A stretch of 64,000 nt of DNA from an uncultured Clostridia bacterium (GCA_944390535.1 CALXQV010000044.1:6431-70430); one strand, 5' to 3'. Positions 15,975 through 16,203 are shown, counted from the stretch's first letter. The notes: a model not told the origin generated them from the letters alone. Translations and numbers: made by a program.

Positions 15975-16009
15975 AAAAAAATTCCTTTATTTCAGTACTC
16001 TAAGAACAT
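15975..16009. repeat. left 35-nt inverted repeat of a candidate invertible segment
   Basis: AAAAAAATTCCTTTATTTCAGTACTCTAAGAACAT matches the reverse complement of 16169-16203 at 33/35 positions. Confidence 0.85.
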
Positions 16010-16022
16010 TTTATATAACTGA

Positions 16023-16051
16023 ATTTTAACAATAAAATATAGTGAAGTCAA
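16023..16051 (-). promoter_or_regulatory. near-consensus sigma-A-type promoter inside the IR-flanked segment, currently firing leftwards
   Basis: On the minus strand: TTGACT (16051-16046), 17-nt spacer, TAAAAT (16028-16023). Confidence 0.5.
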
Positions 16052-16168
16052 TAAAAATAAATAAAAAAGATTGGAAAAATATAGGTAAATCATTTTAAAA
16101 ATAGAAAGAATATCTTTTTGTAATAAAAAGGTGAAAAGCTTTAATAGCAATACATTTAAAGAAAATGG

Positions 16169-16203
16169 ATGTTCTTAGAGTACTGAAATCTAGGAATTTT
16201 TTT
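16169..16203. repeat. right 35-nt inverted repeat of a candidate invertible segment
   Basis: ATGTTCTTAGAGTACTGAAATCTAGGAATTTTTTT, partner of 15975-16009. Confidence 0.85.

Follow-up and report, generated by a model that had tools for sequence, protein, structure and literature searches.

A probable promoter inverton upstream of a surface-protein gene in an uncultured gut Clostridia lineage

Upstream of a gene for a predicted 387-residue surface protein, an uncultured Clostridia bacterium carries a promoter cassette of about 200 bp that is very probably an inverton, turned between two orientations by a site-specific recombinase whose gene lies elsewhere in the genome. The cassette lies within the 64,000-nucleotide stretch of DNA that we analysed (the window; GCA_944390535.1, CALXQV010000044.1:6431-70430), and assembled metagenome contigs show that both of its orientations occur in nature with unchanged flanks. 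A preliminary description of the window had proposed an invertible promoter at this position. The proposal is borne out by a left junction (contig L006) and a right junction (L014) in the opposite orientation, and by a complete pair of orientations (L088 and L093) at a paralogous locus. Invertons are a known kind of element, and the locus adds an instance, not a new principle.

The window has a G+C content of 29% and encodes spoVT, spoIIE, rpoB/rpoC, and mreBCD. In the closest species-representative genomes, proteins are at most 55% identical to the window protein over its full length, with 65% for one partial match. These are all metagenome-assembled genomes (MAGs) of uncultured Clostridia, recovered from chicken, rabbit, or human (Hadza) guts or belonging to the BRZ sample series.

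Results

Inverted repeat and candidate recombination sites

A 711-nt spacer of 20% G+C separates spoVT from the 387-aa open reading frame (ORF). It contains two inverted-repeat arms of 38 nt, paired at 36 of 38 positions (95% complementary), with 159 nt in between (Table 1). The preliminary description had recognized this repeat but set its extent too short, at 35 nt with 33 matches; its 159-bp segment between the arms agrees with our measurement. The 20-mer core of the repeat is present in exactly two copies in the window, one per strand, against 0.01 expected from shuffles. Arms of at least 30 nt appeared in none of 60 Markov-2 simulations with the composition of the window and in one of 60 with the 20%-GC intergenic composition, each simulation being 64 kb long, or about 90 times the length of the real spacer. 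The inverted repeat is far beyond chance.

Table 1. Features of the switch region, with window coordinates and the analyses that bear on each.
Feature	Position	Strand	Basis
spoVT, left neighbour, outside the switch	15256-15810	+	TIGR02851, E 4e-78; another gene takes this place at each homologous switch
Bidirectional terminator-like hairpin (A-tract, stem, T-tract), after spoVT	15815-15877		Folding, inverted-repeat search
Predicted left recombination site / left inverted repeat	15972-16009		Repeat search, core count, site alignment
Left site, outer arm TTCCTTTA	15982-15989		Site alignment
Left site, 7-nt asymmetric spacer TTCAGTA	15991-15997		Site alignment
Left site, inner arm TCTAAGAA	15999-16006		Site alignment
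Segment between repeats, 159 nt	16010-16168		Repeat search, contig comparison
Predicted outward-facing sigma-A-type promoter TTGACT-17-TAAAAT, TGn extended -10	16023-16051	-	Promoter scan, conserved at homologous switches
Predicted right recombination site / right inverted repeat	16169-16206		Repeat search, folding, site alignment
Right site, inner arm TTCTTAGA	16172-16179		Site alignment
Right site, spacer TACTGAA	16181-16187		Site alignment
Right site, outer arm TCTAGGAA, then T7GT6	16189-16196		Site alignment
Leader between switch and gene, 315 nt	16207-16521	+	Sequence, terminator scan
Fixed proximal extended -10, TGATATAAT	16486-16494	+	Conserved upstream of orthologs in switch-less species
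RBS AGAGGAGG	16507-16514	+	Follows the proximal extended -10
Target gene, 387 aa	16522-17685	+	ORF, Pfam/NCBIfam scans, structure model, homolog searches

When the sites of all switches were lined up, every aligned site was an imperfect palindrome centred on a 7-nt asymmetric spacer. In the consensus, the outer arm ends in ...TTCCTAGA(G/T), the spacer reads TTCA(G/A)(T/A)A, and the inner arm reads CTCTA(A/G)GAA...; spacer variants are TTAAGTA in L040 and TTTAAAA in L109. The dyad is preserved between loci, with the arm variants TTCTTAGA and TTCCTAGA lying on swapped sides in L088 and the window. The left outer arm of the window strain (TTCCTTTA) has two mismatches, TT for AG, whereas a sister strain carries the intact TTCCTAGA.

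The exchange interval can be placed by following polymorphisms through two comparisons of opposite orientations, one at the window locus and one at the paralogous locus (both described below). In each, polymorphisms outside the spacer remain with the flank, and differences beyond the inner arm travel with the segment. Strand exchange is therefore confined to the spacer and the inner arm, a stretch in which the two sites do not differ. By this sequence criterion, the exchange point is inside the repeat, at or next to the 7-nt spacer TTCAGTA. Contig comparison delimits the mobile unit as the 159-nt segment plus the inner arms, roughly 15998-16180. We also considered whether the TT/AG dinucleotide moves with the segment; this idea is contradicted by L014, and the dinucleotide is an outer-arm strain marker that stays with the flank.

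Both orientations at the window locus and at a sister locus

Evidence on orientation comes from independent ENA/Logan metagenome contigs reached via exact-protein look-ups. Two contigs have the window locus inverted (ON). L006 (ERZ15848002, coverage 21) runs from the spoVT flank through the left repeat and then for 71 nt in sequence that matches the segment's far end without a difference (100%). L014 (ERZ28614405) begins with the promoter end of the segment (...TTGTTAAAATTCAGTTATATAAA) and continues into the right repeat and right flank, so that the promoter is aimed at the gene. The orientation found in the window (OFF) recurs in L003, L011, and L013, from several samples. L013 and L014 have in common a gene allele (P0002) whose product is 79% identical to the window protein, as well as a 258-nt insertion in the leader. 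Therefore, one lineage has both states.

At a sister locus, the switch is preceded by AAA_21/RloB and followed by a paralog and then Bax1-I. Its promoter faces away from the paralog gene in four contigs (L088-L091) and toward it in one (L093), a k=141 contig that spans the entire switch. The flanks of L088 and L093 are identical (104/104 nt on the left and 483/483 on the right). Their segments are also identical, at 163/163 positions, only as the reverse complement.

Contig ends near the window locus fall inside the switch in 11 of 13 cases. These breaks were considered as proof of mixed orientation and downgraded to weak support, because an element with at least two copies per genome also breaks assemblies. 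In sample BRZ_PI, the left contig (L008) is ON, with variant bases in its segment, and the right contig (L013) is OFF. L008 joins the left flank of locus 1 to an ON-oriented segment with bases of the locus-2 type, a join that a k=55 graph should not invent. L005 joins the left flank of locus 1 to the right flank of locus 2 and is probably an assembly chimera through ~120 identical nt. The variant segment bases are common to L005 (3936-4100) and L008 (2087-2241), and could stem from either an assembly chimera or a real exchange between the two loci.

These contigs also bear on the possibility that the switch is a relic, an old inversion polymorphism now fixed between strains and without a useful flipping rate in the window strain. 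All informative contigs of the window strain type (left arm TT, allele P0001) are OFF (the window, L003, and L011), and the ON contigs L006 and L014 have sister-strain markers. The left outer arm is TTCCTTTA in the window and TTCCTAGA in the sister strain, and the degenerate arm with its two mismatches possibly lowers invertibility in the window strain; small differences in repeat length are described as altering invertibility in Clostridioides difficile (PMC12282940). However, the sister lineage has both orientations (L013 OFF, L014 ON), the sister-locus pair L088/L093 differs only by inversion over 750 nt, which argues for a recent event, and site and promoter are conserved across species. 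We therefore regard a relic as unlikely, and a functional inverton as the preferred reading.

Predicted promoters, leader, and terminator-like structures

The segment carries a putative promoter on its minus strand, with a -35 element TTGACT (16051-16046), a 17-nt spacer, and a -10 element TAAAAT (16028-16023). Ten of the 12 hexamer positions match the consensus, in agreement with the near-consensus promoter that had been reported, and a TG precedes the -10. Among the promoter-like sites of the region it scores best, but there are nine of these, and shuffles of the same AT-rich DNA yield no fewer; the hexamers alone therefore prove nothing. The predicted transcription start lies ~7 nt inside the left repeat. 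As assembled, the promoter would fire leftwards, away from the gene at 16522, as the preliminary description had it.

From the right repeat to the ATG at 16522 we measured 315 nt, close to the ~320 nt given previously, and a scan of this leader found no terminator-like site. The gene appears to have a promoter of its own. The proximal extended -10 box TGATATAAT and the AAAAAACAAAAGAGGAGG that follows it are kept upstream of orthologs in many species without the switch, and at type-B loci a fixed TTGACT-17-TAAAAT promoter lies between switch and gene. Given the conserved proximal promoter, the OFF orientation would correspond to basal expression rather than silence, and the switch most likely toggles basal versus boosted expression, not a strict off and on. 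The earlier designation OFF thus holds for the direction of the promoter but probably not for the gene.

A terminator-like hairpin follows spoVT, ~140 nt past the left repeat on the leftward path, and folds at -15.4 and -16.5 kcal/mol (z -4.6, both strands). It looks like a shield for spoVT against leftward (antisense) transcripts from the switch. An Rfam scan gave only a sub-threshold miRNA match, on this same hairpin. Read rightwards, the right site of the window can form a 9-bp hairpin followed by U7GU6, with a folding energy of -12 kcal/mol when flanking pairs are included and a z of only -1.5; this structure might attenuate ON-state transcripts. At type-B loci, the layout looks purposeful: the left site, a near-perfect palindrome, has a leftward fold of -17 to -19 kcal/mol (z below -5), and the right site is without a fold. 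The palindromic recombination site may thus double as a terminator of OFF-state transcripts, and we conjecture that at type-B loci the site hairpins stop OFF-state transcripts and pass ON-state transcripts.

A family of switch loci upstream of paralogous genes

Switches of this type were found at no fewer than five loci: the window, L042, the L088 group, L040, and L109. A further switch locus in the window species is represented by the foreign right flank of L005, which is homologous to the right flank of L042. L005 runs from the right repeat core into this different flank, where a gene begins with MKEEKGKRIIKENKGI, indicating a second copy of the switch; the protein with this N-terminus was absent among the 166 homologs retrieved. 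Convergent pairs of the motif TT[CA]A[AG][AT]ACTCTA[AG][AG]A, 152-165 nt apart, were confined to switch loci across ~1.2 Mb of related DNA. L109 was found by eye, its spacer variant being outside this motif.

The promoter is kept at all switch loci (L042, L088-L091, L093, L040, and L109 in addition to the window), with a -35 of TTGACT or TTGATA, 17 nt, a -10 of TAAAAT, TATAAT, or TAGAAT, and TGn. Apart from the promoter, the segment diverges to ~69% mean column identity. At L040, a mere ~20 nt separates the right site from the RBS, so that the promoter there must come from the cassette. The left neighbours of the switches are unrelated (spoVT, tsaE, RloB, a PDDEXK_9 protein, and a small membrane protein), and the right neighbour is always a gene encoding a protein of one N-terminal class, with a Gly-plus-hydrophobic anchor. 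A shared site and promoter upstream of paralogs at several loci imply one trans-acting recombinase and a small regulon.

This arrangement is informative about the direction in which the switch acts. Leftward transcription, either antisense to spoVT or of an unannotated RNA, could be the function of the switch instead of control of the 387-aa gene, given that the promoter points left in most assemblies (8/9 contigs at type-B loci) and that at several loci a fixed promoter of its own precedes the right-hand gene. Yet the genes to the left are not related to one another and are found on both strands, whereas the right neighbour is always of the same protein class. Leftward transcripts would moreover meet the strong bidirectional hairpin between switch and spoVT and, at type-B loci, the left-site fold of -17 to -19 kcal/mol. 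We consider leftward control highly improbable, and take the right-hand gene to be the target of the inverton.

Further copies of the repeat were sought in several collections. The exact 20-nt core had no match in species-representative genomes, and the 19-base degenerate site pattern had none in viral contigs. One 20-nt core match in the JGI metagenomes (L012) was rejected as a chance match inside an unrelated low-complexity ORF. With no real core copies in these collections, the organism is absent from them, and our results rest on ENA/Logan contigs. A 52-aa ORF inside the segment gave no record on protein look-up. On the question of other repeat copies, which the preliminary description had raised, there are two arms in 64 kb, and elsewhere the motif occurs only upstream of paralogs. 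The same description had named a multi-copy MITE or a mere hairpin as readings that would count against a switch, and neither describes the element; copies were found only at cognate loci, with no target-site duplication, and the distribution, with unrelated left neighbours and paralogous right genes, excludes a MITE.

It is extremely unlikely that the opposite orientations are assembly artefacts, with the element being a MITE or its repeats having no role other than that of an RNA hairpin or terminator. The element does have at least two near-identical copies per genome, L005 resembles a chimera between them, contigs break at the repeats, and a 38-bp stem would fold in RNA. However, ON junctions were obtained repeatedly, from independent samples and assemblers, the k of 141 behind L093 far exceeds the length of the repeat, polymorphisms divide precisely at the spacer as in recombination and not as in mis-joins or re-insertion, the flanking bases (TATCTT and TTTTAT) differ as expected without target-site duplication, the core motif has two copies in 64 kb and lies elsewhere only at cognate loci, and exact searches of genome, metagenome, and viral collections gave no real copies.

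The target protein

The protein encoded downstream of the switch has an N-terminal hydrophobic anchor (KEKGAITLFLLLAMLFF...), a helix, and a globular domain (residues 76-387). In an AlphaFold (AF2) model (pLDDT 81), the N terminus is predicted to form a membrane helix; another helix follows, and the globular domain is modelled with confidence over the same residues. The protein has no match to Pfam or NCBIfam at E<=0.01 and belongs to no PHROG family. Its homologs number 1,727 at E<=1e-3, none of them named, and the paralog P0100 has >7,900. Foldseek searches with the model gave nothing similar (best E 2.0 in the PDB and 0.13 in BFVD), and a profile search against PDB sequences gave no hits.

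The preliminary description had called this protein PilX-like, a label for which the hydrophobic segment at the N terminus is the sole basis. Models of pilin N-termini (N_methyl, PilX_N, TIGR02532) did not match the window protein at E<=0.01, and among paralogs only a marginal GspG match was obtained (E 0.045). A Gly followed by a hydrophobic helix is present (KEKG|AITLF..., and KG|ITLIALV... in paralogs), with Phe or Ala, not Glu, at position +5. Some minor pilins also have no Glu5, so its absence does not exclude a pilin-like role. The globular domain is fused to two kinds of N-terminus, KE(K/N)G(A/S)ITLF... as in the window and KGITLIALVITIIVLLILAG..., which is prepilin-leader-like. With no pilin HMM or fold match, PilX-like describes a resemblance, not membership.

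One paralog, P0008, is 66% identical to the window protein over residues 76-385 and is the variable protein of a diversity-generating retroelement (DGR). The variable repeat, at the 3' end of the P0008 gene (L092 5101-5254), and a 154-nt template repeat (6211-6364) have mismatches only at template adenines. The homologous stretch of the window protein is at about residues 316-355. No reverse transcriptase was matched among the window ORFs scanned. Given a DGR variable repeat in a related domain, the globular domain is very likely a ligand-binding surface module under diversifying pressure. The DGR cassette in L092 (4001-7898) is complete, with bAvd and RVT_1 (reverse transcriptase) genes adjoining P0008, in a phage-like neighbourhood (HTH, sigma-70 r4, DUF3846).

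Search for the recombinase

No recombinase family was matched in a Pfam scan of the window ORFs, in line with the earlier statement that the window encodes none. Of the ORFs between 120 and 800 aa, the scan covered all but the RecD-like helicase, MreB, RadC, and a small number of overlapping frames that are probably spurious; MreB and RadC were identified by a separate search. The 10 kb past the right end of the window likewise contained no recombinase that we could find. Tyrosine recombinases have overlap regions of 6-8 bp, and serine invertases use a central dinucleotide. By this analogy, the odd, asymmetric 7-nt spacer fits a tyrosine-type recombinase better than a serine invertase.

An IS110-family DEDD transposase gene lies directly upstream of the paralog P0144 (L095 59-1213, L096 37-1194). 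It was considered as the invertase and rejected: because contigs stop at its end and the site motif is missing there, it has the appearance of an inserted IS. Eight other P0144 contigs break 58-218 nt upstream of the gene, as expected for a multi-copy IS.

Discussion

Proposed mechanism

We propose that each end of the cassette is a dyad recombination site composed of an outer arm, the 7-nt asymmetric spacer TTCAGTA, and an inner arm, CTCTAAGAA. Since the two sites are mutually inverted, exchange at or next to the spacer would invert everything between them, presumably reversibly within a clone. The cassette promoter, a near-consensus sigma-A type at one edge, would read outward. In the orientation of the window, it would fire leftwards into the bidirectional terminator behind spoVT. 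After inversion, transcripts would start ~7 nt inside the right repeat and run through the right site and the 315-nt leader into the surface-protein gene. One trans-acting recombinase, predicted to be of the tyrosine type, would serve all loci that have the same site and promoter.

Comparison with known switches

The RecV-dependent switches of C. difficile include flgB (Cdi4) and cwpV (Cdi1), in an organism that, like ours, belongs to the class Clostridia. RecV acts on several sites, and the cwpV switch uses a terminator. The flgB switch resembles the window locus in having a short invertible segment (154 bp versus 159 bp) that is bounded by imperfect inverted repeats and precedes a surface-structure gene, and the recombinase of the RecV switches is encoded away from them (PMC5386303), just as none is found near the window switch. 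The flgB switch was discovered from genome sequences that aligned only after a segment was reverse-complemented (PMC5386303), which is in-silico evidence of the same kind as the L088/L093 pair. The two differ in their repeats: that of flgB, AAGTT(A/G)CTAT(A/T)TTACAAAAAA (PMC5386303), is 21 nt long compared with 38 nt at the window locus and has no similarity to the window repeat AACAAAAAAATTCCTAGATTTCAGTACTCTAAGAACAT, a comparison that covered the flgB repeat only. In flgB, the switch is part of a 5' UTR, and its effect comes after transcription has begun, by way of Rho (PMC7446863). The window element has a promoter, whereas flgB acts via Rho and cwpV via a terminator. The likeness to flgB and cwpV suggested in the preliminary description therefore extends to design but not to family, the repeat being unrelated to that of flgB.

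The capsular-polysaccharide invertons of Bacteroides fragilis comprise several loci with one repeat type, outward promoters, and a single recombinase, Mpi, which is a serine recombinase with short repeats; inversion of the PSA promoter is described in PMC10939037. The present system would share with them the use of several loci, a common repeat type, an outward promoter, and one trans-acting recombinase for surface molecules. It differs in phylum and promoter type, and its long dyad with a 7-nt spacer would be better suited to a tyrosine recombinase. In Escherichia coli, the fimS element (FimB/FimE) is 314 bp long with 9-bp repeats, and the recombinase genes adjoin it. As in fimS, a promoter at the edge reads outward into a gene for a surface protein (an adhesin or pilus gene in fimS), and differing outer and inner half-sites flank the exchange region. 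Unlike in fimS, there is no recombinase nearby, and the target gene retains a promoter of its own.

Invertons have been found by the thousands in gut bacteria (PMC11602134, PMC11892184). In gut Bacteroidales, surface-anchored, ligand-binding adhesins (type V pili) are controlled by promoter inversion (PMC12940148), and DGRs diversify such adhesins (10.1101/2024.11.15.621889). The two devices have counterparts here in the inverted promoter and in the paralog P0008 as a DGR target. The protein family, anchor type, and phylum are different, and no DGR lies beside the window gene.

A surface-protein family possibly under several modes of variation

More tentatively, the observations could be combined into a joint reading, which we offer as a possibility short of an even chance: the switch may belong to a variation system of uncultured gut Clostridia that has not been described before, in which a very large, uncharacterised family of N-terminally anchored, pilin-like surface proteins would be varied by three independent devices, namely a promoter-inverton regulon, head-to-head paralog pairs, and a DGR. 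Between 1,700 and 8,000 homologs of this family can be detected, and it falls into no Pfam family and has no known fold. The inverton loci may share one 16-7-16 dyad site and one recombinase; the paralog pairs may share inverted 5' coding ends; and the DGR may mutate a C-terminal ligand-binding region. Head-to-head pairs were seen in other species, where an rpoC-adjacent ortholog faces a paralog (L035 8017-11125, and also L029 and L038). The paralog, of 510 aa, has a sub-threshold FGE-sulfatase match and has its first ~70 residues in common with the ortholog, and the two 5' ends are inverted repeats of each other over ~250 nt, with a spacer of ~395 nt. This geometry differs from that of the switch and could allow one promoter to be swapped between two alternative proteins.

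Invertons are a main source of surface heterogeneity in gut bacteria, and most characterised cases are from Bacteroidales and a few pathogens. The present locus contributes a sequence-verified inverton in an uncultured, spore-forming gut Clostridia lineage from chicken, rabbit, and human-associated metagenomes. Added interest comes from its verified site anatomy, its multi-locus regulon, and the uncharacterised, DGR-linked protein family under the switch. A large unannotated surface-protein family is thereby flagged as being under strong diversifying control, and is therefore a candidate adhesin or a target of phage or host immunity. Convergent pairs of the site motif provide a probe for further loci and, by co-occurrence, for the recombinase.

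Additional observations

The sister lineage's 258-nt leader insertion is relatively GC-rich (L013 325-581, L014 201-457), with its insertion point at window position 16338. A hairpin within it, GAATAGGAAAAA...TTTTTCCTATTC, resembles a hairpin at window 28969-29011. A second long inverted repeat in the window (2860-2904 and 3005-3049; 45 nt, 41/45, with 100 nt between) is GGGAC-rich and lies between a FemAB-family gene and alr. Similar GGGAC-type repeats are present in many related MAG loci (L025, L027, L032, L042, L043, L072, and L084), which suggests a MITE-like or structured repeat family.

A 189-aa ORF (21493-22062, minus strand) with a PemK/MazF-like toxin domain (E 7e-5, just above the Pfam cut-off) sits between rpoB and rpoC, which are normally adjacent genes. 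In L016 (7318-8145), the same ortholog, P0036, and left flank are accompanied on the right by a GHMP-kinase gene instead of rpoC, reflecting either a rearrangement or a mis-join at the 3' end of the gene. At 10124-12356, the ORF of a RecD-like helicase (680 aa) overlaps with a 76-aa ORF (12126-12356) that comes after it in a different frame and looks like the C-terminal continuation of the helicase; a frameshift or an assembly error could account for the break. Three consecutive giant ORFs of 2892, 1320, and 1679 aa occupy 38857-56840 on the minus strand, at least two of them with signal-peptide-like N-termini. Just past the right end of the window, L105 (1-6012) encodes a 4983-aa SpaA/dockerin-domain protein, and this region is rich in very large surface proteins.
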